Source of the DNA: a virus
Taxonomy: Duplodnaviria > Caudoviricetes
Virus record (IMG/VR): IMGVR_UViG_3300032277_002974
Coordinates: 1-36,870 of that record
Direction: 5' to 3' (one strand)
Length of the DNA: 36,870 nt
Shown here piece after piece: positions 3,896 through 36,870 of the stretch. The notes under the pieces were generated by a model. It was not told the origin of the DNA and ran no database searches. It saw only the letters and a program-made list of their open reading frames with translations. Position numbers and translations under genes: made by a program. Numbering within the stretch: position 1 is the first letter of the stretch; each line of letters starts with the position of its first letter.

Positions 3896-3964
3896 CTGTG
3901 AAGCCTTGGACAGCAACCGGATAGCCCGTCTAATCTTCCCGCTATAGATGATATAAAGATATCA
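3896..3964 (+). promoter_or_regulatory. Repeated promoter/operator, type A copy 2
   Basis: CTGTGAAGCCTTGGACAGCAACCGGAT...AGATGATATAAAGATATCA. Confidence 0.72.
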
Positions 3965-3985
3965 AAAGAGCACGGAGAGATTATT

Positions 3986-4726
3986 ATGCCAAACGCAGCC
4001 TTAGACAAGATTCAGGATCGCATCAGGAAGCTACTCGCCCTCGGAGAGTCTGCTAACGAACACGAAGCAAAGCTGGCAATGAAGAATGCTCAGAAGCTGA
4101 TGAACAAGTACAACATCGACCAAGCTGACGTACTGATCAACATTAGTTCATCCGATATCACACATGAAGACTTTCTAGAGACAGCTGCACCACATAGCAG
4201 CGTAGCGTCTCTGGGTGGTCACGTATGCCGTCTATTCGATTGTCAGGTGATCATCATGAAGAAAGTAGCGAGCCGTAGACATACGATGTTCCGCTTCGTA
4301 GGCACGACAGAGAACATCGCATCTGCGCGCTACATGCTTACTCACCTAATGACCTGCTGGAAGTCTATGCACATCGCCGACTTTAAAGCACATCAGGCCG
4401 ACACCCATCCTGCACTTCAGGCGAAGAAAGTGAGTTTCCGCAATGCTCATAGAGCTGGCTTCTCTGAGTCTATCGGCAAGCGTGTAGATAGCCTTCTGAA
4501 AGCTCGTACGACAGAGCTGAACAAAGCCTCCGGTAACGCAGCTCTGGTACCTGTCAAAATGTCCGAAGCGGTTAAGGCTTACTCAGACGAGAAGTTCGAT
4601 CTGAAGAAGGGCCGCGCAGGTCGCACTAGCTCGAACGCAGGACGCTCGGCAGGACGCGCAGCGGGCAACTCGGTTCCAATGGGAGGCGCGATTGCAGGTA
4701 AAGGCGCAGCAGGCGCACTTAACTGA
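3986..4726 (+). CDS. DUF2786-domain protein
   Basis: N-terminal KIQDRIRKLLALGESANEHEAKLAMKNAQKLMNKYNI is the DUF2786 signature; FVG...A and Gly-rich tail typical of the family. Confidence 0.85.
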   Translation: MPNAALDKIQDRIRKLLALGESANEHEAKLAMKNAQKLMNKYNIDQADVLINISSSDITHEDFLETAAPHSSVASLGGHVCRLFDCQVIIMKKVASRRHTMFRFVGTTENIASARYMLTHLMTCWKSMHIADFKAHQADTHPALQAKKVSFRNAHRAGFSESIGKRVDSLLKARTTELNKASGNAALVPVKMSEAVKAYSDEKFDLKKGRAGRTSSNAGRSAGRAAGNSVPMGGAIAGKGAAGALN

Positions 4727-4891: not shown

Positions 4892-5560
4892 CCATGCTAC
4901 GCCGATATTATCTTGCACGAGTTAACCAAACATCTAGTCTGGTCGTTAGCTACAACGCTCGGCAAACCTGATCAGCTATTTTCAGGCATGTCAGTGATTC
5001 GACACAGGGTGCCCTGTTACCGCAGGGCTACCCATCACTCAGAACCTTCAGAATCCATCCATCCGGCTCTCTTCTCTATCGAGTGTAGGCGCAAGCCCTA
5101 GGTGACAAGAAATCTCATGTCACTTCACTCATTTGCCCGCGAGTGTAACACGACCACCATGGTGTTAAGCAAGTCTGTAGCCTGTTTGCTCAGCAGCGAA
5201 CGTATGATTTACCCATCTGGCCGACAATCACGAAAGGTACATCCTCCCAGCCCAGGCAATTAACATCAAATACATCAGGCTTATCTAGAAGGTCAGTGGG
5301 CGAACCCTAGCCAGCTCTAGGTTCAAGCCGCTATGGGCGATTTATGGATTAGAGGAATTTTCTGATTATCGTAGGAATGAAATTTCCTATCTAAGCAGCC
5401 GTAGCAGGATATCTAGGCGAGTACTCGTATGTATTACGGAAACACGCTTAGAAGCTGATATAGGCAGGCTACTCAGTACGAAGCTATCGACGAGATACAA
5501 CGATAAGTTAGATCGACATAGAAGACTCTGATTTGGTATGAGGTTCCCTGTACATGCGGC

Positions 5561-6096
5561 CTATTTTGCCCGATAATAACGGAAACCAAAAAACTTTTAT
5601 CTCGTAAATATCTAATTTAAAAGATTATGTTCAAAACAGACGGCCTTATCCTTAGTGTAATATATATAGAAGGTGGGAGAAAGATCGGAGGAGTTAAACA
5701 CATACAATTCGAGTTACAGGCGCGTAGGTAGGCTATTTTACCCCATAATAATGGAAACCAAAAAACTTTTATCTCGTAAATATCTAATTTAAAAGATTAT
5801 GTTCAAAACAGACGGCCTTAATTTTGGATATAAGATATAAGATATACAACGAGGGGAGAAATGCCTAAGCACTAGATAGAGAAGCACCTACAATTCGAGC
5901 ACCGCACCTATAGATATGAGGCTATTTTACCCGATACCAAGGGAAACCAAAATAATTATATCTCGTAAATATCTAATTTTAAAGATTATGTTCAAAACAT
6001 CGTCCTTAATCTTGAACGTGATAATATAAGAGGTGTAGGTAGGACGGTTAAAGAACGGGGCGGGAATGCCCAAAGCAGCAACCACAATTTGAGTTA
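5561..6096. repeat. Three tandem ~170-190 bp non-coding units with an ~88-bp conserved core
   Basis: Cores at 5561-5648, 5733-5820, 5922-6008; 68 bp identical between copies 1 and 2; each followed by a variable part and ACAATTYGAG. Confidence 0.95.
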
Positions 6097-9826: not shown

Positions 9827-10072
9827 GACGTAGCGAGTCCCGACTCCTCCCCGCAGGGAGGGAGGGCGCAGCGTAGCGTCGCTATCTTTACTCTTTATTC
9901 TTTAGTCTTTAGAGATTCTGTAAACCGTTTAATACCAACGGTCTATAGATTTAGAGGTACCCACTTTGTACTTTAGAGGTACCCACTTTGTACTTTAGAG
10001 GTACCCACTTTGTACTTTAGAGGTACCCACTTTGTATCAATTTAGATTTAGAGGTACCCACTTTGTATCAAT
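9827..10072 (+). repeat. Origin 2: GC hairpin, AT-rich tract and five 21-bp iterons
   Basis: TTTAGAGGTACCCACTTTGTA at 9950, 9972, 9994, 10016 (22-bp period) and 10047; TCTTTA x4 tract at ~9885-9911; CTCCC-cgca-GGGAG hairpin upstream; precedes Rep_3 gene. Confidence 0.9.
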
Positions 10073-10139: not shown

Positions 10140-10219
10140 CCGATCTCAGATAGTCAGGAGTAGCTACCTGATGAACGACAATCGCCATTATTGGGTGGTG
10201 GTTATCTTCTGAGATTCGG
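10140..10219 (+). ncRNA. Three-way-junction RNA motif, copy 1 (rep leader)
   Basis: P1 CCGAUCUCAGA/UCUGAGAUUCGG, UAG, P2 UCAGG/CCUGA, UGAAC, P3, U. Confidence 0.7.
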
Positions 10220-10247
10220 CTCCCTACCAATATAGGAGTACATCATT

Positions 10248-11408
10248 ATGAACCAAGTAAAACCAACACAGAAGCAGAGCGCCAAGGCCTCTGAAAATAA
10301 GATCGCATTCAGCAGGGCGCTAATCTCAGCATCGTGCAGAATGACTGCGACCCAGCTTAAACTATTCATGCTGTCCCTTGCCGTTATCAATAGTAACGAG
10401 TCAATAGATGCCGCACACCGTACTATACAGTTCCAGAGTTCATCTTTTATAGATATCTTCGGAAACAATACTACATACGCCCGACTTAATGATGAGATGA
10501 GGGATATAGCTACTGCCGCCTTCGTAGTGTCCCGAGAGTTCGTGCAGGATGGTGTAGTAACTACCGACCACGTACCTGTGCCTATTTTCTCGAAAACGTC
10601 AGCCGCTGAAAACGGTGTAATTACGCTCACCTTCCGAGATGAGATTCTACACCACATCTTTTCTCTAGGTACAGATCAGCCTTACCTGCTTATGGCACTA
10701 GAAGGGATCGACCGGCTCAAGACCAAAGCAGCAATGCGCCTATATCTGGCGTTATTGGCGAGCTATAGAGAGAATGCCTTATCTAAGCGCAAGCCTCGCA
10801 TCGATCTAAAGAGCCTGCGCGCTACTCTGGACCTAACAAAGAATGCGACATACAGAGCTGTGAAGAGAAAACTAGATAGAGCTATCGCTGAGATTAATCG
10901 AACAGAAGGCGCGGACATTACCATCAACGGCTGCATTCCAGTTTCCGGCGGCAAGCCTGTTTATAAGGGTTCCAGACCAGCAGACGGTATAGAGTTCGAT
11001 GTGGACTACTCGGATCACCTTGGGAACTTCCCTGACAAGAGAATAGGCCGCGACGATAAAACAACCAAAGCTCTTGAGGATACTTTTCATGTTGCGCCTG
11101 AATCCAAGAAAAGGAAAAAGCTCGGTAAGTCCAAAGGCGAAAGAAAGTTCACCAAGACAGATACCCGCGCTGATATTCCTGTAGACGATCTTAGAGCAAA
11201 ACTGACTAACGCCGGAGACTCGGCCATACACCTGTTTGATCTGCTAGTTAAATCCAAGACGCTATCAGTGTCAGAAGAGGAGCTATTCCGCTATGACGAC
11301 ATCGAACCGCATAGCGACGCTGTGGAACTCACCGGATGCCTACGTCAACACGGCGCGTCTTTTAACAGCAGCTTGGGTAGCGTCAAGATGACGTACAAGA
11401 ACCTTTAA
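10248..11408 (+). CDS. Rep_3 (RepB-like) replication initiator
   Basis: NKIAFSRALISASCRMTATQLKLFMLSLAVI, ITLTF, LKTKAAMRLYLAL, KRKLDRAIAEIN are Rep_3 hallmarks; iterons upstream. Confidence 0.88.
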   Translation: MNQVKPTQKQSAKASENKIAFSRALISASCRMTATQLKLFMLSLAVINSNESIDAAHRTIQFQSSSFIDIFGNNTTYARLNDEMRDIATAAFVVSREFVQDGVVTTDHVPVPIFSKTSAAENGVITLTFRDEILHHIFSLGTDQPYLLMALEGIDRLKTKAAMRLYLALLASYRENALSKRKPRIDLKSLRATLDLTKNATYRAVKRKLDRAIAEINRTEGADITINGCIPVSGGKPVYKGSRPADGIEFDVDYSDHLGNFPDKRIGRDDKTTKALEDTFHVAPESKKRKKLGKSKGERKFTKTDTRADIPVDDLRAKLTNAGDSAIHLFDLLVKSKTLSVSEEELFRYDDIEPHSDAVELTGCLRQHGASFNSSLGSVKMTYKNL

Positions 11409-11416
11409 CTCCAAAT

Positions 11417-11504
11417 ACTGACCAGCAGATAGTCAGGCTTGATCACCTGATGAACAGAGCACTACCTATTTCTGAGATAGGCGGTGTGCCTTCTGCTGGT
11501 CGGT
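11417..11504 (+). ncRNA. Three-way-junction RNA motif, copy 2
   Basis: P1 ACUGACCAGCAGA/UCUGCUGGUCGGU, UAG, P2 UCAGG/CCUGA, UGAAC, P3 GCACUACCUAU/AUAGGCGGUGU. Confidence 0.7.
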
Positions 11505-11538
11505 CCCCCAATAACTCAGAATTTTATAGGAAAACATT

Positions 11539-12333
11539 ATGACAGCTTCAAACGAAGACGAAACAACCAATGCTTATCAGAGCGCAAGGAGCAACAAAAT
11601 GAGCATAGAAGTATACCGAGAACTATTGAAGGCAACAGGCACTAAGACATTCGGCAAAACAGACGAAGGCAAACGCCGAGGATTGATCCACGCGCTGGCT
11701 AACCTCGCAGAGGACAAGGTAGACGACTTATCCGAAGAAACCAAGAAGCGATGCGATGACGCACTAATACTTTCATCCTACAACTTCGTAGCTCCTGACT
11801 TCAGAGCGACAGATGCAGAATGGGATACGGCTCTTGCCGCTATTCCAGAAGGCACTCCGCTGATTACACAGGATGGAGTAGAGAAAGCCGTATCCCTTAT
11901 GGTAGATGTAGTTATGGGATCATTGATGCTATGCCAGCCAGCCACCGACCTTATTGTAGAGGACTCACGAGTTCTGAGGGTCGTAGGGCATCAGACTGGC
12001 CCTTGCGCGGAACATCATTTATGCCAGGCCGCGTACGATAGGTATCAGGAAGCCACCGCTCCGTATAACACTGCCCTAGATGAAGACAGGGAGCCTACGG
12101 AGGCTGAAGAAACGTCCCGCTTGGTACCGACACTATACGCAGTAGAGGCGAGGCTACTTCTTGGCTACCCCGTTTTCAGACTCAATATGTGGCGTGGTGG
12201 TGATACCGACGACGGTAAAGTGCTCAAAGTATGGGAGCTTATGCCTTTTGATATCCATATAGCGGAAGAAGTAGCCGCCAATCTGACTGAATGGATCGAA
12301 GCCCAGACAGTCCAAGAAACCGAAGTCGAATAA
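11539..12333 (+). CDS. Acidic hypothetical protein
   Basis: 264-aa ORF with AGGA RBS. Confidence 0.75.
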   Translation: MTASNEDETTNAYQSARSNKMSIEVYRELLKATGTKTFGKTDEGKRRGLIHALANLAEDKVDDLSEETKKRCDDALILSSYNFVAPDFRATDAEWDTALAAIPEGTPLITQDGVEKAVSLMVDVVMGSLMLCQPATDLIVEDSRVLRVVGHQTGPCAEHHLCQAAYDRYQEATAPYNTALDEDREPTEAEETSRLVPTLYAVEARLLLGYPVFRLNMWRGGDTDDGKVLKVWELMPFDIHIAEEVAANLTEWIEAQTVQETEVE

Positions 12334-12370
12334 CCAGCCGAACAACAATCCCAATTAAGGAGTACAACCC

Positions 12371-13006
12371 ATGACAAACCCATCACGCGCAGAATCAATT
12401 ACAGATGCGCTCGAATCTAAAGAAACGCCAACCACTAAAGACGGTGAGTTGCTACTAACCGCTCTGAGCCAACTGACTCTAGCAACTCAGGCTGATATCG
12501 AAGCTATGTACGCTAAACACGGCGCATCCATTGACCCTGCTACCGCCTCAAGCGCGCAAGCAGTACAGAATGTATTCGGAGAGCTTCAGGCATCTATCGA
12601 AGCTCTGACATACTTCTTAGCGGTACCTGAAGCTATCAACACGGCGAACAAGTACGTGGACCTCAACAGGAAGTTTAAGGACGACCTATCCAAGATCGAA
12701 AACGTACTCGCAAAGGTCAACTCAACAGACGGCGGATCTACTATCCCCGAAGCTTGGTTCGAAGCCCAGCTGGTTGCACCCGTATCACTAGACCATTTGA
12801 GCAGTTATCGCCTCGCCTTACTGGCATCAGATTGGCGGGGACAGCGCAACGTCAATCACAAAGATATCTCGTTCACCGCCAAGCACGTAAAAGCATTGAA
12901 AGATATTCGCTCTAAATTCATCAAGACAGTAACGGCTGACAAAGCTCCATCAGCCAAGCCGAAGAAGGCTCCTGTAAAAGTTATCCCTCAACCGGATATG
13001 GACTGA
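12371..13006 (+). CDS. Hypothetical protein
   Basis: 211-aa ORF with TAAGGAG RBS. Confidence 0.75.
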   Translation: MTNPSRAESITDALESKETPTTKDGELLLTALSQLTLATQADIEAMYAKHGASIDPATASSAQAVQNVFGELQASIEALTYFLAVPEAINTANKYVDLNRKFKDDLSKIENVLAKVNSTDGGSTIPEAWFEAQLVAPVSLDHLSSYRLALLASDWRGQRNVNHKDISFTAKHVKALKDIRSKFIKTVTADKAPSAKPKKAPVKVIPQPDMD

Positions 13007-13050
13007 AACAAGCAGCACACCAAAACCAAACCCGCGTAACTATATGCGGT

Positions 13051-13119
13051 CAGGGGAAGATAGGAGAGGCATAAGAAATCTCTCTGAACAGGCGCAACCT
13101 CGTCGCCTTTCTTCCCCTG
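13051..13119 (+). ncRNA. Three-way-junction RNA motif, copy 3
   Basis: P1 CAGGGGAAGA/UCUUCCCCUG, UAG, P2 GAGAG/CUCUC, UGAAC, P3 AGGCG/CGCCU, U. Confidence 0.7.
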
Positions 13120-13152
13120 TTCTAACGAGGACACTCAAACCGAGGTAACACC

Positions 13153-13356
13153 ATGACAACACCAACCAATTTGAACGACTCAATGCTGAAGATGAACGAA
13201 GCTGTTCAGAGCCTGACCGCATCCACTCACAAATGGGAATTGCAGAAAGCCTACCAGCAGGGACGTATGGACGCAGACCTGGCATCTATAACCAGTCTAT
13301 TGGATTCAATGACCGCACGCCTTAATACGTGGACTGAAGACCCCACACCAACCTAA
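13153..13356 (+). CDS. Hypothetical protein
   Basis: 67-aa ORF with GAGGT RBS. Confidence 0.6.
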   Translation: MTTPTNLNDSMLKMNEAVQSLTASTHKWELQKAYQQGRMDADLASITSLLDSMTARLNTWTEDPTPT

Positions 13357-13496
13357 CGAACACATAGAGCGGCGGTCCCTAACCAAGGCCGCCTAACTCT
13401 CGCTGACGATCACCATGATGTGACAAACCCAGCACCCAATAAATACAAACGGAGAACGCAAGAAGACCTGCACGCCAGGCACGCTTAATTAGCAAG

Positions 13497-14021
13497 ATGG
13501 AAACGAACCAAGAACAGTGGTTACCAGTAGTAGGTTATGAAGGCTTATACGAGGTATCCGACAACGGAAACGTAAGGTCATTAGATCGTACAGTCACAGT
13601 TACGCGTCACAACGGTACTTACATTAAACCAGTGCCAGGCATACTAATCTCCCAACGAGCACAGAACGGTTATAAAGTAGTACGACTGAGCAAGTGCGGC
13701 GCGCCCGATACCAAATACGTTCACAGGTTGGTAGCGGAAGCCTTCGTACCTAACCCAAATAACCTAGAGACAGTTGACCATATTGTAGAAGGTAACAAGC
13801 ACGACAACCGAGCTAGCAACTTGAGCTGGTTAGGCCGCGGCGATAACGCCAGAAAAGGCAATTATGAAAAGCCCACCACACTAAGAAACAGAACTACAGA
13901 AGAGGTACGATCATTTCCCTCTCTATCAGAAGCGGCACGCCAGCTTAAACTTAACATAGGGCATCTAGGCCAAGTCTCACTAGGCAAAAGAAAGTCCGTG
14001 TCCGACTGGATATGCGCGTAA
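13497..14021 (+). CDS. NUMOD4-HNH homing endonuclease
   Basis: EQWLPVVGYEGLYEVSDNGNVRS (NUMOD4), VHRLVAEAFVPNP...VDH...N..DN...NL (HNH), FPSLSEAARQL (NUMOD1/IENR1-like). Confidence 0.92.
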   Translation: METNQEQWLPVVGYEGLYEVSDNGNVRSLDRTVTVTRHNGTYIKPVPGILISQRAQNGYKVVRLSKCGAPDTKYVHRLVAEAFVPNPNNLETVDHIVEGNKHDNRASNLSWLGRGDNARKGNYEKPTTLRNRTTEEVRSFPSLSEAARQLKLNIGHLGQVSLGKRKSVSDWICA

Positions 14022-14067
14022 TTTCTAGAACAGCGCGATAACAAAACCAATACACAGGAGGCATACA

Positions 14068-14250
14068 ATGCCATCAACACGCAATGCACTAGAAGCCGCT
14101 CCAGGCTGGAACGTATCCAAAGAGATAAAGCTGGACGATCTACCAACGTCAGTACGCAGAGAATTAGCCACACCAGTTAAGTGTAGGAGCCGAGACGTTA
14201 TCCCGTACTCAGTATTCAAAGCGAAACAGAGTACTAGAGGCTCTGCGTAG
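14068..14250 (+). CDS. Hypothetical protein
   Basis: 60-aa ORF with AGGAGG RBS. Confidence 0.55.
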   Translation: MPSTRNALEAAPGWNVSKEIKLDDLPTSVRRELATPVKCRSRDVIPYSVFKAKQSTRGSA

Positions 14251-14364
14251 AACAGTCATAGAGCCGCCGATACCAACAAAAGAGGTAATCCCTCGCATTA
14301 AATAATCCAAACAGAGTAGCGGCGGCATACGTCAGTTCTACCAGATAAATACAGGAGCACATAA

Positions 14365-18671: not shown

Positions 18672-19046
18672 ATGAAGAAAACTCTAGCAGCTATTATGGC
18701 GGCAGCATTTCTGATGCTCGCTATCACACCTACAGTAAGCGCAGCACCACTTAGTAAATGCAAGGCATGCCATTCGATTACAGTAGACGGCAAAGCCAAG
18801 ATGGGTCCAAACCTGTTCGGTGTAATGGATCGCCAGCAAGGATCAGAAGAAGGCTACAAGTACGGAAGCTACCTGCAGGCGCAGAACGCAGCAGAAGCCG
18901 TATGGACTGAAGAAGCTCTACGGGATTGGATCGCAGACAGTAAAGGCGTTGCCAAAGAAGTAGGGCAGAAGACGAAGATGCCGAAACAAAAACTTACGGG
19001 TGAGAAGGCCGACGCGGTAGTAACTGCACTCCAGGCACTGAAGTAA
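18672..19046 (+). CDS. Class I cytochrome c (c2-like), periplasmic
   Basis: Signal peptide, CKACH haem motif, GPNLFGV, GYKYG, WTEEAL..WI, TKMP axial Met. Confidence 0.93.
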   Translation: MKKTLAAIMAAAFLMLAITPTVSAAPLSKCKACHSITVDGKAKMGPNLFGVMDRQQGSEEGYKYGSYLQAQNAAEAVWTEEALRDWIADSKGVAKEVGQKTKMPKQKLTGEKADAVVTALQALK

Positions 19047-19716: not shown

Positions 19717-20029
19717 ACTAATCGAACGCTACAGAGCGAAATCCCTACGCAAGAAGATTAAGCGAGCGTTGACACAAGGAATCCCAGATACCGACTGTGT
19801 TGTAATCAACCTACAGAAACCGGAGCAGGCTCTACTACTATCCGAAGCCGATCACCTTGTATTCGCAGTACCGATCAAAGGGCTACAGAGCCTAGACGTA
19901 ACCAGCAGGAAGCAGTGCGCGCATGTAGTAGAACTACTAGGCGCGGGATACGGAACATCACCACTAGCCACGTACCTGCTGATACTGGATAACATGCTCT
20001 ACCGTTCGCTAAGAAGCGACCATGTTTGA
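19706..20029 (+). CDS. Hypothetical protein
   Basis: 107-aa ORF overlapping both neighbours. Confidence 0.6.
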   Translation: MLRKLIERYRAKSLRKKIKRALTQGIPDTDCVVINLQKPEQALLLSEADHLVFAVPIKGLQSLDVTSRKQCAHVVELLGAGYGTSPLATYLLILDNMLYRSLRSDHV

Positions 20030-20843
20030 TACCCGAAACCCAGCCCAATGGAAGCGAGCCAATCCGCTACCGTCAAACGGCATGCTATACGAGACAGATG
20101 TGCTGTACCGTGGCTATACGCTAGGTGAGCTATTGGTAGTAGGAACATCCGATCTGTCCATCCAGCAGAAAGTAGAAATTATGGCCCAAGGCATGATTCG
20201 GAATGACGGCAAAGATGTTTATGATTTAACCTTCTACGACTTCGCCTATGTCGGCCTACTCAGAAAGCTCGGAACGCTCGGCGACATGGCTACCTACACA
20301 ATGGCACTCGAATGCGATGTATGCCGTGAGAAAATGACCCGATCCCTTCGAGGCGACCACTTCGCCTTTTCCGATCTTGAGACAAAGTTTCCTTTCAAAG
20401 AGAAACTAGGCTCTACAACAACGACAGTCTCGCCAATCACGGTACGGAGGTACTTGGACATACTGCCTGAGACTGACTTCCATATCTTAGCAGCATCTAT
20501 GGGCATGTCCTTTGAGCAATTACTCACATCAGAGCACATCACAGAGATCGCGCATATCGAGCAACTGCTATGTCATACGCTGGAGCCAATCGACTTCAAA
20601 TGCGACTACTGCGGCAACAAGCGCAGCGTCGCTCTAGAGCTACTAAGCAATAGGCCAGAATGCTCTCTAGTTCTCCCCGAATTGAATCAGGCCGCCGCTA
20701 AGAGTTTATCAGAATCGCTATACGGTATGTCTAAGCATTTCAGCACTACACCTAATGAATTCTACCCCATGCAATTCAGCGACTACAGGAACATGGAACG
20801 ATTAGCTGCTAAGGCTCTCGAAGCATCTAGGCAGAAGAAATAA
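20022..20843 (+). CDS. Baseplate-hub assembly protein (T4 gp26/gp51-like)
   Basis: LPSNGMLY...YRGYTLGE motif, D..YV.L.R, two CxxC pairs (CDVC, CDYC), position before tube and tape-measure genes. Confidence 0.65.
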   Translation: MFDTRNPAQWKRANPLPSNGMLYETDVLYRGYTLGELLVVGTSDLSIQQKVEIMAQGMIRNDGKDVYDLTFYDFAYVGLLRKLGTLGDMATYTMALECDVCREKMTRSLRGDHFAFSDLETKFPFKEKLGSTTTTVSPITVRRYLDILPETDFHILAASMGMSFEQLLTSEHITEIAHIEQLLCHTLEPIDFKCDYCGNKRSVALELLSNRPECSLVLPELNQAAAKSLSESLYGMSKHFSTTPNEFYPMQFSDYRNMERLAAKALEASRQKK

Positions 20844-20871
20844 TCATAACCAAATATACAGGAGGCTATAC

Positions 20872-21369
20872 ATGCCACCCTTACTAAAAAGCGGCGTATT
20901 CCAATCTATGACAACTGTAGAATGGGGTTCAACGACAAACTGGGAAGTCTCTTTCCCGAGCGATCCAATGGCTGCGCCATTCAGGGAATACATTCCCGCT
21001 CAAACGATAAACACACCACACGGTAGCGTTACTGAGCAAGAGATCAGCTTTGGTAATAAGACAGCGCAGATTCCTCTAGGCACAAGCGCAGAGCAAATCT
21101 CAGTCACCTTCCTAGATAATGACGAGGATGTAGTACTCAATTACTTCTCCGAATGGATGGCCTACTTGACCGATGGCGGCACAGCGACAGAAACAGAAGC
21201 TGCCCGACTAATGGTATACACCAGAGCCAACAACTCGCTTACATCCTCAAATGATTATGCGGTCCGCGTTTACCCTATGGGAGAACTAACTTCTGAGATG
21301 GGCGAAACCGCAGGCGTACGTCAGGTATCAGTAACATTCAGAGTCGTTTCTATGGGTGATCCTCAATGA
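20872..21369 (+). CDS. Tail-tube-fold protein (gp19/gp54-like tube initiator)
   Basis: NWEVSF, QISVTFLDNDEDVVLNYFSEWM, VYP.G, QVSVTF; paralogous pattern to 24152-24670. Confidence 0.68.
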   Translation: MPPLLKSGVFQSMTTVEWGSTTNWEVSFPSDPMAAPFREYIPAQTINTPHGSVTEQEISFGNKTAQIPLGTSAEQISVTFLDNDEDVVLNYFSEWMAYLTDGGTATETEAARLMVYTRANNSLTSSNDYAVRVYPMGELTSEMGETAGVRQVSVTFRVVSMGDPQ

Positions 21370-21399
21370 ATAAATTTATAATAGAAAGGAGGCCGAGTA

Positions 21400-23433
21400 A
21401 TGGCTAAGCACTTACCATTTTCAGACGCCGTAGCTAAAGACAGGAACGGCGAAGGCCCCAAGAGTAGCTCCCTGAAAGATATGGAGCTGGAGAAGAACAG
21501 GCGCAGCTTCTTGCAGATGGCTGGATCGTTCCAACTCTCTACCAGTGCGCTCACAGACAGCATCGACTTCCTCTCTGAGAACGCTACAACAGACGATCAG
21601 AAAGAAGCGGTTGCCGTTATTGAGAAAGGCGCATTCAATCCGATAATCAAAGCTGTACGCGATAGAGAAAAGGTTACAAGCGAGCAGATGGCCACAACGC
21701 TTAATGATATTAAATTAGTATCAAGAGAGCTGCTTCAGGACTCGCAAACAGTAACCGTATCTACCGATAGATTTATGAGCGAACTCATAGGCCAGGCTAC
21801 GGACGAGACGAACAGCACTAGCGACAGAGTGCAGTACATCAAAGCTGTAAGCGATTTTGCTACTCAGTATGCTGACTTCAGTTCCTCTCAGACTAATGAA
21901 CTTGCGCCTCTTATGGAGTCAGTGCAGCTCGGAAACTCATTAACAGACGAACAGATATCTACACTGACTGAGTTTTCAGACAGCGTTCAATCACAGATCG
22001 GAGATACTAAGCTGAGTACTACTATCGGCGAGATTAACGGAACGCTGGCAAGCGTAGACTTCTCTGGTGACAGTAACATTAGAACGCTACAAGAAGGCAA
22101 CCTGGAAGAAACGCTAGTCCGGTTTGCTGAAAGCATATCCGTAGGCTCTGCTACTGCCGCCCAGGAACTCAATTCCAATATCGGTACTGCTCTAGGAATC
22201 AACGGTCCCGTAGGCGACATGCTCGGCGAAGGTATAACTAATCTCGGCGGTAAGATGGTCAGCGGATTAGGCTCTATGATTGCTGATAGTACCATAGGCC
22301 AAATAGCAGCAGACGAGATCGCAGCTATTAAGAAAAGGCGCGCAGACAAGAAAGCATTGAAGCGCGTACGTCGCCGTGAGATCAAACAAGCACGTTACGA
22401 GAAATGGCGTGAGCGTTTCGATACAGCATTAGGGCGTAAAAACGCCAAGCTCATCGATAAGGATGCTAAGGCCAGAGATGTCAAAAAGAACAAGGTAGAC
22501 GCTAGGCGCCATAAGGCCCTTACTGGTGCTATCGGAGAATCCAACAACTGGCTGATTCGTATATTCGCTATTCAGGCGATTATGGCCGTTCTGGGTAAGG
22601 CGTGGACCGCAGCCATATCAGCCATCGCCGCAGCTGCCTCTGCTGTTGGGCTAGGTGGTAAAGGTGGAGCCGCAGCTACAGGTAAACCAAGTAAGCTAGG
22701 CAAGGTTGCTAAATTCGGTGGTGGTGTACTCGCCGCTGGTCTCGCTGGGTACGATAAACAGCAAGAGCTGAAAGACAGAGAAGACCTTACGGGCGCTCAA
22801 AAGACCACACAGGTCGCAACTACTGCTATAGGTGCAGGCGGCGGAGCGGTAGCGGGAGCTATGGCAGGCGCTGCTATCGGATCTATTATCCCAGGCATCG
22901 GAACTGTTATCGGCGGTATCATTGGTGGGGCATTAGGCGCATGGGCTGGTTCAGAAGCAGGCGAAGCTACGGGCGAGTTAATATCCAAAGCACTACCGGA
23001 TAAAAACAGCACTTCGGTTACTCAGGATACCGTGGCTAAGTATATGGAGCTTGTTCAATCAGGCATGCCTAAAGCTGAAGCTATGCAGGCTTCTGGTATC
23101 TCACAGGCTAACGCTAGGAAGGCTGACTCCGGCGCAAGTGCAGAAGCTATCGTTGCCAGTAATCAGGTGGCGGCTATCGGCTTTAAATCTCAAAGCTTTA
23201 AACCCCAAGCTACTAAGACTGCGTTGGACAGCTCCGCTACTAAGAAAGTAACGGAACTGCGTAAGGAAGAAGCTATCCTGAGCAGAGCCGCTATGAAGGC
23301 TTCCGGTAAAGAACCGAATATCACAGTGCAACCAACACCAGTGGTAGTTCAGCCAGCACCAGCAATGCCTACTCCGAGAACCACATCTATCAACGATACG
23401 GGTCTATCAATCCTACAGAAGGGCTACGGATAA
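21400..23433 (+). CDS. Tape measure protein
   Basis: 677 aa, helical Ala/Ser-rich, two hydrophobic Gly-zipper stretches (GAVAGAMAGAAIGSIIPGIGTVIGGIIGGALG), Pro-rich C-terminus; flanked by tube genes. Confidence 0.78.
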   Translation: MAKHLPFSDAVAKDRNGEGPKSSSLKDMELEKNRRSFLQMAGSFQLSTSALTDSIDFLSENATTDDQKEAVAVIEKGAFNPIIKAVRDREKVTSEQMATTLNDIKLVSRELLQDSQTVTVSTDRFMSELIGQATDETNSTSDRVQYIKAVSDFATQYADFSSSQTNELAPLMESVQLGNSLTDEQISTLTEFSDSVQSQIGDTKLSTTIGEINGTLASVDFSGDSNIRTLQEGNLEETLVRFAESISVGSATAAQELNSNIGTALGINGPVGDMLGEGITNLGGKMVSGLGSMIADSTIGQIAADEIAAIKKRRADKKALKRVRRREIKQARYEKWRERFDTALGRKNAKLIDKDAKARDVKKNKVDARRHKALTGAIGESNNWLIRIFAIQAIMAVLGKAWTAAISAIAAAASAVGLGGKGGAAATGKPSKLGKVAKFGGGVLAAGLAGYDKQQELKDREDLTGAQKTTQVATTAIGAGGGAVAGAMAGAAIGSIIPGIGTVIGGIIGGALGAWAGSEAGEATGELISKALPDKNSTSVTQDTVAKYMELVQSGMPKAEAMQASGISQANARKADSGASAEAIVASNQVAAIGFKSQSFKPQATKTALDSSATKKVTELRKEEAILSRAAMKASGKEPNITVQPTPVVVQPAPAMPTPRTTSINDTGLSILQKGYG

Positions 23434-23470
23434 TGGCCTGTAAACTAATTAGAAAACCAACGAGGATATT

Positions 23471-24127
23471 ATGGCTATCGAAGCAGTAAGCATAAGACAA
23501 ACCGAAGAAGAAAATCTGGTCAGGATATATCAGTCGGGCACTGATAACTTCGTATCCGGCACACTTATGGAGGACATAACGCTCGGCGTTCAAGCTAACT
23601 GGTCTTCTGGCTCTGCTGTGACAGATGTAATCGACGGTGTAGGTAACCTAGCTCGCACTTTAGGTGGCGCTAACTACGACTCTATGAAGTCATTTGTGAA
23701 TAGCACGCGTGTTAATCAACCCGCAGCAGCACGCTGGGCTTCTACCTATCAATGGGCTGGTACAGATAGACCGACATTCAACGTGTCCATCGGCGCCTTC
23801 TGTCTAAAGGACACCGATGATGTCAGGGCGCAGCTCGCCCCTTTATTCGACTACACGCTTCCTCAGGTCATTGGCGGCGATGGCGGCGTTATCATACCAC
23901 CTCTCGGGTATAGGACGTCACTCAACGGCGCACAGGTCGAAGGAGTCTTGAGACTAGGAATCGGCCAGTGGTTCAGTGCTGGGGGACTTGTATGTTCAGG
24001 CGTCCAGACAGTATTCAGCAAAGTACTCAATAAGAAAGGTAAGCCCTTATTCGGGATCGCGAACGTCACCCTGCAACCAGCACAGGAGATATCTGCTGAT
24101 ACGTTCCGGCAGTACCTACGCCAATGA
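23471..24127 (+). CDS. Baseplate/tail-tube cap protein (gp48-like)
   Basis: QWAGTDRPTFNV, LRLGIGQWF, LVCSGVQTVFS, GKPLFGIANVTLQP; directly after tape measure. Confidence 0.58.
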   Translation: MAIEAVSIRQTEEENLVRIYQSGTDNFVSGTLMEDITLGVQANWSSGSAVTDVIDGVGNLARTLGGANYDSMKSFVNSTRVNQPAAARWASTYQWAGTDRPTFNVSIGAFCLKDTDDVRAQLAPLFDYTLPQVIGGDGGVIIPPLGYRTSLNGAQVEGVLRLGIGQWFSAGGLVCSGVQTVFSKVLNKKGKPLFGIANVTLQPAQEISADTFRQYLRQ

Positions 24128-24151
24128 TTTTAATTCAAACAGGAGGGCATA

Positions 24152-24670
24152 ATGCCTAGACCTACACCAGATCAAATTAGAGGCAGCGGTGATACGCTCA
24201 CCACATATAGGTGGGATGTCGCTTTCATGGATGGCGAGCTTATCGGGCTAGATTCCAATAATGTAAATTACAGGTGCAAGACTACGACATTGCCTAATAC
24301 GGATGTTGAGTTTGTCCCGGTGACGCTTAACGGCCATGCCTATCAACAGCCATCAACAGCCGATAGATCGGGCGAGATAGAGATGACATTCTACGAGAAC
24401 GATAGCGCCGCACTATTAGCTATCTTCAATACGTGGCTTGAGCTTACATTCAATCCGAAGACAGGAGCCCGTCTTACCAATTCAGATTTAAGGGTAGGAT
24501 GCCTAATTCGACTTCTGAATGGACAAGACGAGCGCGTTGCCGAGTACACACTATCGAACGTCTTTCTGAAGACGCTCTCCAACCCAGACTTGGGAAGCGA
24601 CAACGAAGCGTTCGAGATTACAATCACGCTGGTTTATTCTGGATACACTTACGACAGTACATCCAGCTAA
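24152..24670 (+). CDS. Tail tube protein (T4 gp19-like family)
   Basis: YRWDVAF, RCKTTTLP, GEIEMTFYE, FNTW, RLLNGQD..VAEYTLSNVF, EITITLVY. Confidence 0.82.
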   Translation: MPRPTPDQIRGSGDTLTTYRWDVAFMDGELIGLDSNNVNYRCKTTTLPNTDVEFVPVTLNGHAYQQPSTADRSGEIEMTFYENDSAALLAIFNTWLELTFNPKTGARLTNSDLRVGCLIRLLNGQDERVAEYTLSNVFLKTLSNPDLGSDNEAFEITITLVYSGYTYDSTSS

Positions 24671-24886: not shown

Positions 24887-24950
24887 TGTGAGTCCTTGGA
24901 CAGCGGCATAATGATATCATAGTATCACCTTATCGAGACGAAGGGAGACA
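24887..24950 (+). promoter_or_regulatory. Repeated sigma70-like promoter/operator, type B copy 1
   Basis: TGGACA-N17-TAGTAT with TGATATCA palindrome in the spacer. Confidence 0.8.
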
Positions 24951-26350: not shown

Positions 26351-26421
26351 GCTCGCTGTGAATCTCTGGCAACACCACATAAACCCTTTTATAATCAACA
26401 TTAAGGAGCAAACGGCAGAGG

Positions 26422-26488
26422 ACAACAAGGCGGTAGAACCGACTAGCATAATAGCTTCTCTGTAATCAGAGAGTGTTTACACCAAAGC
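26422..26488 (+). repeat. Long inverted repeat, left copy
   Basis: ACAACAAGGCGGTAGAACCGACTAGC (26 bp) plus AGCTTCTCTGTAATCA (16 bp) match the reverse complement of 29302-29347. Confidence 0.9.
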
Positions 26489-28805: not shown

Positions 28806-29054
28806 ATGGATTTCAACGAGTGGTTATCGACGTTCTTGGAAGAGAAAGAAATTGACGCCGAGAGCATCACATTTGAAGTAGAAGGCCCAGAGTGGGGCGC
28901 GAACATCATACCGATGGTTACTGTCATCGAGCACATGAGAATCACATCACCAACCGAGCAGCAGGCGATTAAAGCTATGTTGATTAAGATAGACTTCGCC
29001 AACGCGCCAGTAGTTCCTTATTTCAAGCATCTAGCCCAGGCAATAGCCCGTTAA
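28806..29054 (+). CDS. Phage-type hypothetical protein
   Basis: 82-aa ORF with AAGGGG RBS. Confidence 0.7.
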   Translation: MDFNEWLSTFLEEKEIDAESITFEVEGPEWGANIIPMVTVIEHMRITSPTEQQAIKAMLIKIDFANAPVVPYFKHLAQAIAR

Positions 29055-29281
29055 TATGAACGAGATAGGTAATCCCTCGCATTACATATTCAAAACAGCG
29101 TAGCGGCGATCTAAACCAACGCTGTGAACCTCTGGCAAGGTATCAGGAAGCCTTTTAGAATCGGTATCAGGAGGTAGAGAAGTACCACGGCAGAGAAACT
29201 TTCGGGTAACCGGATAGCGTAATAGCTTCAATGTAAGGAGGGAGCGTGTACCTCCGGCGGCTGCGTGTGTGTAGTGCCATA

Positions 29282-31121: not shown

Positions 31122-31664
31122 ATGGATAACGCTATCCTTAATAAGGAAAAGGACTTGCTGCTGGATGCTCAGAAGATGCTATCAAATCTTCATCGGGGAT
31201 CGCCGCCGCATTTGAAATACATATACGACTATCTGATGACGCGACTCCTGCCGCTTCGATTTAACCAGATTGAAGCAGAGCAGATGGCCGACGTAGTTCA
31301 TATCAAGCGTATAGAGATCGACCTGACAAACCCACTCGGCATTACTGAGGATCAACTGGTCCTACTGACCAAAACCAAGCAGCGTAAGATAAGAAAGCTA
31401 CAACGCGAAGCGAGAGCGCAGCCTATAGAGCCCGAATGCCGCCGTAGAGCAGGTTGGAACAACTTAGAAGACGAGTCATTACTTAATGAGTTCCTGTCTC
31501 TCTATGGAGCATCTAAGGCGGTAGAGCGGGATACAGAGATAGCAACGCGACTTAATAAAGAACACCACGAAGGCGAAGACGTCAGAACGCATAAAACAGT
31601 GTATGCCAGGCTACACGGTTTAGGGCTTCTGAAGATGGCGAAAGATGAAGGCACGCTAGCTTGA
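31122..31664 (+). CDS. Hypothetical protein, possible C-terminal HTH
   Basis: GGAGG RBS before ATG 31122 (ORF open from 31071); W...ED..L...IA..LN...RT...V.ARL..LGL. Confidence 0.65.
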   Translation: MDNAILNKEKDLLLDAQKMLSNLHRGSPPHLKYIYDYLMTRLLPLRFNQIEAEQMADVVHIKRIEIDLTNPLGITEDQLVLLTKTKQRKIRKLQREARAQPIEPECRRRAGWNNLEDESLLNEFLSLYGASKAVERDTEIATRLNKEHHEGEDVRTHKTVYARLHGLGLLKMAKDEGTLA

Positions 31665-34891: not shown

Positions 34892-34932
34892 GGTGGGTAT
34901 GGCTCCAATCCGAGCTTTACCCACCATCCTTT
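34892..34932. terminator. Hairpin between convergent genes
   Basis: GGTGGGTAtGGCTC/GAGCTtTACCCACC. Confidence 0.5.
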
Positions 34933-35582
34933 TACTTCTTATCTCCAGGCTGAAGGTTGTTCAGGTAGGCTTTTAACTCAGCGCAGCTATAGACGGTTGT
35001 ACGAGGACCAAGCTTAACCGGAGTAAGTGGAATCTCTCCCGATTTGATCTTGGCATACAATCCGCTCTTACTTATAGAGATAAAGCGCAAAACGTCCGAT
35101 ATCCTGTAATAACCTTCATTCGGTATCGAAGCGGCTCTTTTTCGGTCACGTAGAATCGCCGTAGAGCTGTTTTTACCCTCTTCGGCTAGTGCTACTATCT
35201 CTTCAGTATTACAATTATTCGTTGGTACGCTTACGTCAGCGACTTCAGGTGTACTCGTGATAAGAAAGGCAGGCGTTTCGATATCCAGCGTATTGCACAA
35301 CGATCTAAGCTGTTTTGCGGTTACTGTATCGTTACCGGACGCGCCGAGCAGATCAATGCTCTTTCTCATGCTTTCGTATTCGCCGTACGTGTCGTCTACA
35401 TCATCTGGGTCTATCAGATCGAATACGGCTACAGGTGGCTTGACCGCCTTTCCGTTATAGCGGCCAAGAAGATAGTCGGCGAAGTCATCAAGCTCGTACA
35501 TACCAACCATAAAGATAGCGGCTTGGTGTACGTTGAAGCTCTTGCGCTTCTGTAGAATCTTGATTGCTGTATCAGTCTTCAT
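34932..35582 (-). CDS. AlpA-family regulator/excisionase with long N-terminal extension
   Basis: C-terminal YYRISDVLRFISISKSGLYAKIKSGEIP.TPVKLGPRTTVY is AlpA-like; overlaps integrase stop. Confidence 0.8.
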   Translation of the reverse strand: MKTDTAIKILQKRKSFNVHQAAIFMVGMYELDDFADYLLGRYNGKAVKPPVAVFDLIDPDDVDDTYGEYESMRKSIDLLGASGNDTVTAKQLRSLCNTLDIETPAFLITSTPEVADVSVPTNNCNTEEIVALAEEGKNSSTAILRDRKRAASIPNEGYYRISDVLRFISISKSGLYAKIKSGEIPLTPVKLGPRTTVYSCAELKAYLNNLQPGDKK

Positions 35583-36816
35583 CGTATTTGTAGTCCTTGC
35601 GCTTCGGTAGTTCTGTATCGGCTCGCAGAGCATCTATCAGGTCACTATACCATTGGAGTAGGGCGGTTCTAGCAGGTAAGTGCATTGCTCTGTTATAGAT
35701 GCCGCGAGTACCTGAGATAGCATGAGCAAGTTGTAGCTCTACGGCATCAGAAGGCCATCCTGCTTCGTGCGAGATCGTACTGAAGGTTGTTCTGAATCCA
35801 TGAGGTACAACTATGTCGCTGGAGTAGCCCAGACGAGCAAGACAGGCATTAGCTGTACCGTCCGAAGTAGGGCGTTTCCAAGTGCGAGAGGATGGGAAGC
35901 AATACGTCTGTTCTCCTACTCCGGTAAGTAGTCGAAGCTCCTTGAAATACCCCTCTACCTGTCTCGACATTGGTATGAGCAAATCTTTTCGCATCTTCGT
36001 ATGTTCGGCAGGTACTACGATCATGTGAGCTTTCCAATCGAACCAACTCCATTCCATTATTCGAAGCTCTCCAGGCCGCAGAGCTAGGTGAGGCATGATC
36101 TTCATAAGCTGCTGCACAGGATACGTAGCTGCGAGTGTATCAATCGCCCGTATCAACTGACCGAATTGCGTTGGATTGGTGATAGCTGCGCGGTTCTCTA
36201 CTTTCAGTTGTGTGATAGCTCCTTTCAGAGCGTAGGTGACGTCAGTCTCCGCTCTTTCTGTAGCTACGGCATACCGCGCAATCCGACTGATAATAGACTT
36301 TATACGGTGTGCTGTTTCTATATGGCCTGCGCTCTCTGATACCCTCATTACAGCGAGTACTTCAGATGCTTTTAGATCCGCGAAAGGTATGTGTCCTATG
36401 TGGGGTAGAATTAGCTTATCAAGTTTGCGCTTTGTCTCGTTCAGTGTGCGCTTTGATACCTGCTGCTTGTCGAGCCATTCTGTAGCTACAGCCAGAACAG
36501 TATTACCCGTATCAGTTGCGGCGTTAAGCCTATGGCGTTTTCTTGCTACTGACGGATTTACACCTTGGTCAAGTAGCTCTCTGGCCGCATCGCGTAGCTC
36601 TCTGGCTTCTTTCAGAGTTGTCTTAGGGTAGGTACCGAGTGATAGGGTTTTCTGCTTCGAGTCGAAGGAGTAAGCAAACCGCCATCCCTTACTGATCTTT
36701 CCTGTTCTGGCAGAGCGTTCTACCAGTAGAGATAAACCCAGACTGTCATACAGCTTCTTGCGGTTCTTATCCTTCGATAGGGATGCGTTTTGAGCTTTAA
36801 GGTTTGTTAACGCCAT
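35572..36816 (-). CDS. P4-type tyrosine integrase
   Basis: MALTNLK, KLYDSLGLSL, KQKTLSLGTYP..TLKEAR (arm-binding domain), LRPGEL, K, HGFR, QLAH, YNR. Confidence 0.96.
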   Translation of the reverse strand: MALTNLKAQNASLSKDKNRKKLYDSLGLSLLVERSARTGKISKGWRFAYSFDSKQKTLSLGTYPKTTLKEARELRDAARELLDQGVNPSVARKRHRLNAATDTGNTVLAVATEWLDKQQVSKRTLNETKRKLDKLILPHIGHIPFADLKASEVLAVMRVSESAGHIETAHRIKSIISRIARYAVATERAETDVTYALKGAITQLKVENRAAITNPTQFGQLIRAIDTLAATYPVQQLMKIMPHLALRPGELRIMEWSWFDWKAHMIVVPAEHTKMRKDLLIPMSRQVEGYFKELRLLTGVGEQTYCFPSSRTWKRPTSDGTANACLARLGYSSDIVVPHGFRTTFSTISHEAGWPSDAVELQLAHAISGTRGIYNRAMHLPARTALLQWYSDLIDALRADTELPKRKDYKYDED

Positions 36817-36870
36817 AACCGCATTTAACACCAATAATAAGGCCGTGGGAAGGGGTAGGAATATCAGCAA

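Follow-up and report, generated by a model that had tools for sequence, protein, structure and literature searches.

The int-alpA RNA motif is catalogued in Rfam as RF02996, with the type 'Gene; sRNA', and is said to derive from a 2017 survey by Weinberg (PMC5737381), whose main text does not contain the term 'alpA'. From the family name, we take its characteristic location to be between an integrase gene and an alpA gene. The consensus is a three-way junction, P1-UA-P2-GAA-P3-(C)U-P1, with a short P2 stem (~4 bp) and a GAAAA linker. In the RF02996 members analysed here, the P2 loop is often palindromic and the P3 loop (L3) is complementary to two downstream repeats, the second of which lies at the Shine-Dalgarno sequence. 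In a sample of 151 Pseudomonadota genomes, 36 carry a match to the Rfam model, 33 of them above its cut-off. A literature search that reached few subscription papers found no functional study of int-alpA, and the motif occurs as a table entry in the available text of one source (PMC12370729). Here we describe three related RNAs in the 36.9-kb virus record IMGVR_UViG_3300032277_002974 (36,870 nt, the whole of which is called the window; classed as a provirus, with a completeness estimate of 27%), where they are placed along the operon of a Rep3-family replication initiator and, as judged from sequence comparison, are a long-P2 variant of int-alpA.

All three RNAs are on the + strand, where a preliminary description of this DNA had located them: copy 1 in the rep leader (10140-10219), copy 2 beginning 8 nt past the rep stop codon (11417-11504), and copy 3 farther downstream (13051-13119). 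The proposed three-way-junction architecture is borne out by predicted folds of -31.4, -39.7 and -28.9 kcal/mol for copies 1, 2 and 3 (z = -4.82, -4.41 and -4.31), with 0 of 200 shuffles as good for each copy. An alignment of the three copies, which was fitted to the structure, has 58 of 60 cells paired (96.7%), a level that 0 of 500 shuffles reach and that slid registers (45-52% paired) do not approach. The stems had been called fully compensatory, and 14 of the 20 pairs do change on both sides, but copies 1 and 2 share the same P2 sequence. The first P3 pair of copy 2 is an A-C mismatch unless the U of J3/1 is used, and for this reason a strict descriptor finds only copies 1 and 3. Copies 1 and 3 have UA, GAAC and U as junction nucleotides, and copy 2 spends that U in P3; the AGA:UCU closing of P1 is present in the three window copies but is not invariant among their relatives. 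P2 comprises 6 bp with a loop of 8-11 nt, J2/3 is GAAC, and copies 1 and 2 have an extended P3 with loops that are not anti-Shine-Dalgarno.

A test with one copy held out gave a positive result: a model of copies 1 and 2 alone recovers copy 3 (24.9 bits, E 1.5e-4) as the sole other match below E 0.1 in the window, the next being at E 0.16. The distances from RNA end to start codon (28, 34 and 33 nt for copies 1, 2 and 3) agree with the expected spacing of about 30 nt. The three-copy observation is a real, well-supported RNA feature, a conserved fold linked to the starts of downstream genes including rep, and is probably regulatory. No fourth copy was found in the window, either with model R2, built from the three window copies only (no further match below E 0.05), or with model R3, built from the window copies and eight relatives (none below E 0.5). 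A fourth-copy candidate at 31164-31241 on the - strand was rejected, its fold being at chance level (z 0.09).

The preliminary description had not recognised the family. Checked against Rfam, the copies themselves have no direct match: the whole window gave no match at gathering thresholds, the junction-RNA region gave only one chance miRNA match on the opposite strand at E<=10, and the window gave no match to RF02996 at E<=10, short of the gathering threshold of 35.8 bits. They are nonetheless linked to int-alpA, as divergent relatives, through intermediate sequences. R3 finds 12 of 30 RF02996 loci at the coordinates of the members (E<=0.4; five at E<0.03; best 2.3e-4), and R2 reaches RF02996 loci at a best E of 0.052. 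Conversely, one viral relative (L146, 24.3 bits) and one from Zetaproteobacteria (L186, 22.1 bits) score against RF02996, both below the cut-off. The window copies share with the family UA after P1, a GAA-rich J2/3 and a short pyrimidine J3/1, and differ from it in the longer P2 and the GAAC linker. They differ also in location, since the integrase-alpA junction of the element carries no copy and all three stand in the rep operon; the integrase-alpA location is instead that of the nearest relatives of the window copies (L137, L182, L183 and L186), the AlpA call resting on a weak Pfam match (E 0.09) for L137 and on reading of the open reading frames (ORFs) for the other three. With the formal score failed and homology established through intermediates, the window copies are filed as a variant rather than as members.

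Two side observations concern the integrase-alpA arrangement. Immediately after the integrase of the window (35572-36870, - strand) comes an ORF with a C-terminal AlpA domain (34932-35633, - strand), with no junction RNA between them, unlike the relatives. Elsewhere, locus L188 (G153:C26:2650-5157) carries three RF02996 copies within 2.5 kb, amid an integrase fragment and toxin-antitoxin-like pairs and not arranged in one operon as in the window; two of these copies share a 5' flank, lack the usual 3' spacer and continue directly into other sequence, a pattern suggestive of insertion at this RNA more than once.

Relatives were recovered by a combination of patterns and models. In viral contigs, exact-stem patterns gave no match, and a relaxed pattern keeping AGA/UCU gave 41 loci, none with all three stems. 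The strict pattern gave no match in genome contigs and, in metagenome contigs, only the same element at 100% identity (L042 and L043), which is not independent. BLAST searches of single copies against phages and plasmids returned short chance matches only, and a pattern search of 133 Zetaproteobacteria genomes returned 15 matches in 13 genomes that were judged by eye to be chance. R2 has one match in the same 133 genomes (33.4 bits), situated in a tmRNA-adjacent island in the order integrase, small ORF, RNA, ORF, AlpA-like gene. The pattern as loosened on this match, with P2 and junction letters fixed and P1 and both loops left free, yielded ten viral loci, seven of which score 29-50 bits with R2; the other three (L140 and L142, unscored, and L141, marginal at E 0.035) were excluded. 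The genes that follow the seven viral RNAs encode HNH_3 (three), GIY-YIG (one) and DUF1376 (one) proteins, the remaining two having no Pfam match. The alignment of the resulting 11 RNAs has 95.3% of cells paired, and both sides change in 17 of its 20 pairs. R3 has matches in 7 of the 133 Zetaproteobacteria genomes, six of them new, and three of these six sit between integrase-like and AlpA-like ORFs (translations read by eye). The UA/GAA junction core is conserved across phyla, the junction bases vary among relatives (GAAC, GAAA, GACA, AAAA), and the junction RNA is found ahead of genes that are unrelated, in elements and hosts that are likewise unrelated.

The flanks of some relatives show features of their own. 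At six loci (L139, L143, L144, L145, L147 and L148), the RNA begins at TATCTTTG, near oriented position 3985-3995; this sequence presumably fits the Bacteroidota -7 promoter box, in which case those copies may start their transcripts. Three Zetaproteobacteria copies (L184, L185 and L187) are just downstream of small gene pairs that resemble RelE/HigB-type toxin-antitoxin modules (translations read by eye).

In the variant and in RF02996 alike, L3 is complementary to one or two sites within the ~45 nt that follow P1, a near site 3-12 nt out from P1 and a distal site at or beside the Shine-Dalgarno sequence, and L3 changes with this initiation-region spacer across relatives. In 31 of the 38 RNAs that could be parsed, L3 is more complementary to its own 45-nt spacer than to shuffles of that spacer (600 per RNA, p<=0.05), four of the 42 inputs having been excluded (L179, L161 and L169, unparsed; L165, too short) and L180 and L181 repeating the contigs of L145 and L147. 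For ten distinct window-type loops, own spacers give 11.6 nt versus 6.1 nt for swapped spacers (0 of 20,000 permutations), and own spacers are better in all groups (again 0 of 20,000), a permutation result that is inflated by related sequences and anti-Shine-Dalgarno-like loops. The six later Zetaproteobacteria matches have distal-site duplex energies of -7.8 to -12.6 kcal/mol in all six cases and p<=0.002 for L3 against spacer in three. This loop-spacer pairing may already have been recorded by the int-alpA curators.

The window copies differ in how they present these sites. The two-site pattern is found in copy 3, where L3 (13095-13103) has two 6-nt targets (13125-13130 and 13141-13146; p 0.002), the second overlapping the Shine-Dalgarno sequence of a 67-aa ORF (13153-13356), and copies 1 and 2 have one strong site each. 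The spacer of copy 2 (11507-11531) contains one 7-nt site for its own L3 (11470-11476), a 7/7 complement at 11515-11521 (p 0.017), preceded by an 8/8 complement of the copy 1 L3 (11507-11514) and followed by a Shine-Dalgarno-like AGGA (11528-11531) that matches its own L3 weakly. In copy 1, the apical loop region of L3 (10188-10195) is partly closed by weak G-U pairs, and its 6-nt target (10227-10232) is shown in the loop of a predicted spacer hairpin (10220-10238) that pairs the rep Shine-Dalgarno sequence (10234-10238, unpaired probability 0.00-0.26).

A second recurrent property is self-complementarity of the P2 loop. The P2 loop of copy 1 (10159-10166) carries a self-complementary hexamer (8 nt with the closing pair) and recurs unchanged in L146, L184 and L187, and the parsed P2 loop of copy 2 (11438-11445) is also self-complementary. 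Palindromes of at least 6 nt are present in five of nine distinct variant loops versus 0.75 expected, and palindromes of at least 4 nt in seven of eight distinct RF02996 loops versus 2.2 expected; among the later matches, five of five have a P2 palindrome of at least 6 nt versus 0.44 expected, two of the hexamers being new, although loops of this kind were in the training set of R3 and the test is to that extent circular. The palindromes of copies 1 and 2 are different, with computed self-duplex energies of -5.5 and -5.4 kcal/mol, respectively, against +1.6 kcal/mol for the cross pair, and no cross-pairing is computed among the P2 loops of the three copies.

The account that we favour, and to which we give about an even chance of being correct, is that the window RNAs, as divergent leader RNAs of the int-alpA type, act as translational throttles: L3 would pair with the ribosome-binding region and limit synthesis of Rep and of two other proteins, possibly with dimerisation. 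The UA/GAA junction would position the P3 loop for docking, either on the near site, as a cis pseudoknot, or on the site at the Shine-Dalgarno sequence, and this pairing would hold down translation. Two like transcripts could kiss via their palindromic P2 loops, with the loop of one RNA covering the initiation region of its partner, so that repression would rise with transcript dose; ahead of an iteron-linked rep gene, such an arrangement might provide copy-number or superinfection feedback without a separate antisense gene. Copy 3 is the canonical two-site form, without the palindrome; in copy 2 the near site is strong and the one at the Shine-Dalgarno sequence weak; and copy 1 has a single site, within the loop of the hairpin that pairs the Shine-Dalgarno sequence. 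This account is preferred because the distal site overlaps the Shine-Dalgarno sequence in the canonical form and because the downstream genes (HNH, GIY-YIG and others) need tight dosing by a mobile element. RNA structure that hides the ribosome-binding site ahead of homing endonuclease genes has a precedent in the available text of PMC2988022. The mechanisms weighed here are not fully exclusive.

Several results count against this account. Seven of the 38 RNAs miss p<=0.05 for L3 against spacer, L145 has no site, and three of the six later matches miss on strict pairs (p 0.059, 0.19 and 0.82). Within the window, copy 1 has one 6-nt site with p 0.062 when taken alone and a loop that is partly closed in the predicted fold, and the pairing of the copy 2 L3 at the Shine-Dalgarno sequence is weak (-1.9 kcal/mol). 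Site strength does not determine the direction of control, because near and distal sites are equally strong (25 versus 18 of 44, p 0.18). Nor is the P2 palindrome universal: copy 3 has none, and 14 of 27 RF02996 members share one non-palindromic tetraloop.

Repression is not the only outcome that L3 pairing could have. In an activating pseudoknot like that of ColIb-P9 repZ, pairing of L3 with the near site would open the structure that hides the Shine-Dalgarno sequence and turn translation on, dimerisation or an antisense RNA providing the off signal. We regard this as unlikely, yet the best of the alternatives: the rep Shine-Dalgarno sequence of copy 1 is predicted to be paired, with the L3 target in the loop of the same hairpin; the near site is the sole strong one in copies 1 and 2; copy 1 lies between a promoter-like site on the minus strand (10390-10361) and a terminator-like site (10130-10115); and there is precedent at a rep gene in the available text of PMC4705826. 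However, the second site overlaps the Shine-Dalgarno sequence in copy 3 and in most relatives, which suits repression; no leader peptide is seen before rep; and the promoter scan is below chance (4 found versus 9.1 expected).

The complement of the copy 1 L3 extends beyond its own spacer. It is found in five of the eight leaders of the presumed operon (those of rep and of the genes starting at 11539, 12371, 13497 and 14068) versus one of 39 other leaders (Fisher p 2e-4; ~0.5 expected from shuffles, p 7e-4), the extent of the operon and some start codons being our assignment. Besides the rep leader and the copy 2 spacer, with which the copy 1 loop pairs better (-9.1 kcal/mol) than with its own (-6.5 kcal/mol), the sites are a 6-nt complement at 12350-12355, 21 nt before a 211-aa ORF, a 10/10 complement of the loop region at 13433-13442, 64 nt before a NUMOD4-HNH gene, and a 6-nt complement at 14047-14052, 21 nt before the 60-aa ORF at 14068. 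The distance to the start codon is exactly 21 nt for three of the five sites, and three belong to leaders without a junction RNA. Only 13 of 65,536 8-mers do as well, all of them overlapping the same word; the pattern was found after the fact, and given the copy 1 loop's own site, 13 of 928 8-mers equal it (0.014, three loops having been tried). No such enrichment was seen for L3 of copies 2 and 3, and in 13 other loci the count (4 of 91 leaders versus 2.3 expected) does not support one. The pattern may reflect trans or long-range action, or a shared spacer word to which the copy 1 loop has adapted; a shared spacer tag or a relic of duplication explains it equally as well as trans action.

Two readings, each of which we hold to be rather improbable, build on this pattern. 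One makes copy 1 the master RNA of the operon: rep transcripts would dimerise through the palindrome and the free P3 loop would read a tag at five ribosome-binding sites, giving self-sensing control of copy number and incompatibility without an antisense gene, with copies 2 and 3 as orthogonal, reprogrammed units of the same scaffold. The other, no more probable, is a released, trans-acting antisense RNA like C4 of phages P1 and P7, in which the junction would be cut or terminated out, the free loop would silence several leaders, and the loop sequence would set the immunity or incompatibility type. According to the available text of PMC5320573, C4 has three stems and owes its specificity to a variable loop, and the spread of the copy 1 complement over five leaders, with its recurrent 21-nt spacing, its occurrence in leaders without a junction RNA and the preference of the copy 1 loop for the copy 2 spacer, would suit a released RNA. 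The failure of the pattern to recur for copies 2 and 3 or in the 13 other loci, its discovery after the fact and its equally good explanation as a tag or relic speak against such an RNA, as does the lack of any C4 match in Rfam. Only 12 of 44 RNAs, none of them a window copy, carry a U-rich tract downstream of P1, which likewise counts against release; on this count an intrinsic terminator at that position was dismissed as a general property.

The functions proposed in the preliminary description (put/nut-like antitermination, a processing site, or a helper-protein switch) have found no positive support, and the evidence favours pairing of L3 with the translation-initiation region instead. A put/nut-like antitermination element, or a switch that binds a small ligand or a protein of the helper phage or host and licenses the replication genes on infection, is quite improbable. 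The UA/GAA core, being shared by different phyla, might serve as a binding pocket, the element has the look of a satellite or partial provirus, and a switch input could be layered on a pairing mechanism; but base pairing alone accounts for the covariation of loop and target, and no common partner protein is evident, given the unrelated genes that follow the RNA and the unrelated elements and hosts that carry it. As for antitermination, the scan gives no separate + strand terminator-like site between the copies, the single + strand call (10181-10199) being the P3 stem of copy 1, and there is no Rfam match to a put/nut element. Least probable is cutting of the operon mRNA by a self-cleaving ribozyme or at an RNase processing site: it would be in keeping with a multistem junction whose unpaired bases are conserved and which recurs between genes, and copies 1 and 2 contain CUGAUGA, which we take to be half of a hammerhead core (CUGANGA and GAAA strands around three stems), but CUGAUGA is formed by a P2 strand in those copies and is absent from copy 3, GAAA is not in position, none of the ribozyme models in Rfam gives a score, the junction bases differ among relatives, and targets at the Shine-Dalgarno sequence point to translation.

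Just upstream of copy 1 lie five 20-nt iterons (9951-10067, with starts at 9951, 9973, 9995, 10017 and 10048), which by analogy with Rep3 plasmid biology are likely the Rep-bound origin. Copy 1 leads into the Rep3-family initiator (10248-11408, 386 aa), which has distant relatives only, no close ones having been found in the searches made. The ORF that follows copy 2 (11539-12333, 264 aa) has no family match, the 211-aa ORF (12371-13006) has no junction RNA of its own, and a protein-atlas search with the 67-aa ORF after copy 3 gave weak, unnamed look-alikes only; the NUMOD4-HNH gene (13497-14021), identified by family match, and the 60-aa ORF also belong to the presumed operon, all on the + strand. 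A microbial-mat DNA run that may be the source of the record covers the junction-RNA region without variants.

Elsewhere the window encodes a P4-type integrase, an AlpA-like protein, ParA, a resolvase, Fic, several HNH and GIY-YIG nucleases, two tail-tube-like proteins and one tape-measure-like protein, and scans of 48 and 46 ORFs found no capsid, portal or terminase family. The two tail-tube-like genes, the tape-measure-like gene and a PmgG-like gene lie together at 20022-24670; this set resembles the partial tail module of PLE satellites with chimeric tails, as described in the available text of PMC12987554, or the record may simply be incomplete. A tail-tube query returned no loci. From its gene content the element looks like a satellite or a partial provirus, and a fragment fits both equally. 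A c-type cytochrome with a signal-peptide-like start (18672-19046), a host electron-transfer gene aboard a mobile element, has its closest named relatives in Mariprofundaceae (50-62% identity), and on this ground the host is likely to belong to the Zetaproteobacteria.

The window also contains repeated intergenic sequences. A promoter-like cassette (TTGGACA, then TATAATGATATCATAGTATCAC in four copies) is found at 24895, 27596, 33316 (- strand) and 33981 (- strand), with a related form at 3905 and 15866; it precedes unrelated genes and has an inverted-repeat, operator-like core, and these cassettes probably constitute one regulon. A second motif, starting with TCTAAGCAG, is found at 5390, 8435, 19344 and 17905 (- strand), extends over ~56 nt in three copies, and is possibly another class of promoter or operator. 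The non-coding region 5561-6009 contains three 88-nt AT-rich direct repeats (spacing of 172 and 189 nt, 83-97% identity). Duplicated intergenic blocks of 43-55 nt link 14270-14324 with 29054-29108 and 26354-26480 with 29120-29251, part of the second also mapping onto 14283-14324 in a contig of the DNA run; recombination or nuclease insertion is a possible origin of these scars.

The int-alpA motif is common among Pseudomonadota; the newer aspects of this locus are the iteron and Rep setting, the presence in one operon of three differently programmed copies that do not cross-react in the computed P2-loop pairings, and the copy 1 complement in five of eight operon leaders. Loop swaps, target swaps and dimer tests could be run here in one natural system. 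If the favoured mechanism is true, mobile elements own a portable, reprogrammable RNA throttle for dose-sensitive genes, and should copy 1 act on further leaders, replicon copy number would be controlled in a new way.

Beyond int-alpA, the window RNAs can be compared with three kinds of described system. The ColIb-P9 repZ leader, according to the available text of PMC4705826, is alike in that a loop pairs just upstream of a rep Shine-Dalgarno sequence hidden in a hairpin and in that plasmid copy number is controlled at translation; as described there it has no three-way junction, and it needs a leader peptide and a separate Inc antisense RNA, neither of which was found in the window. Nor does the window have an Rfam match to it. 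The CI RNA of phage P4, alongside C4 of phages P1 and P7, is presumably a comparable system. C4 itself is alike in being a three-stem RNA within the transcript that it controls, with a variable loop that pairs with ribosome-binding sites and sets specificity, but the available text of PMC5320573 gives it two antisense loops and release by RNase P, whereas the window RNA has one antisense loop and one self-complementary loop. The hairpins that sequester the ribosome-binding site of T4-type homing endonuclease genes are alike in that RNA structure limits translation of a dose-sensitive gene, and several relatives of the window RNA precede HNH or GIY-YIG genes; in the available text of PMC2988022 they are simple and are bypassed by late promoters, whereas the window RNA combines a junction, a covarying loop and a duplicated target.

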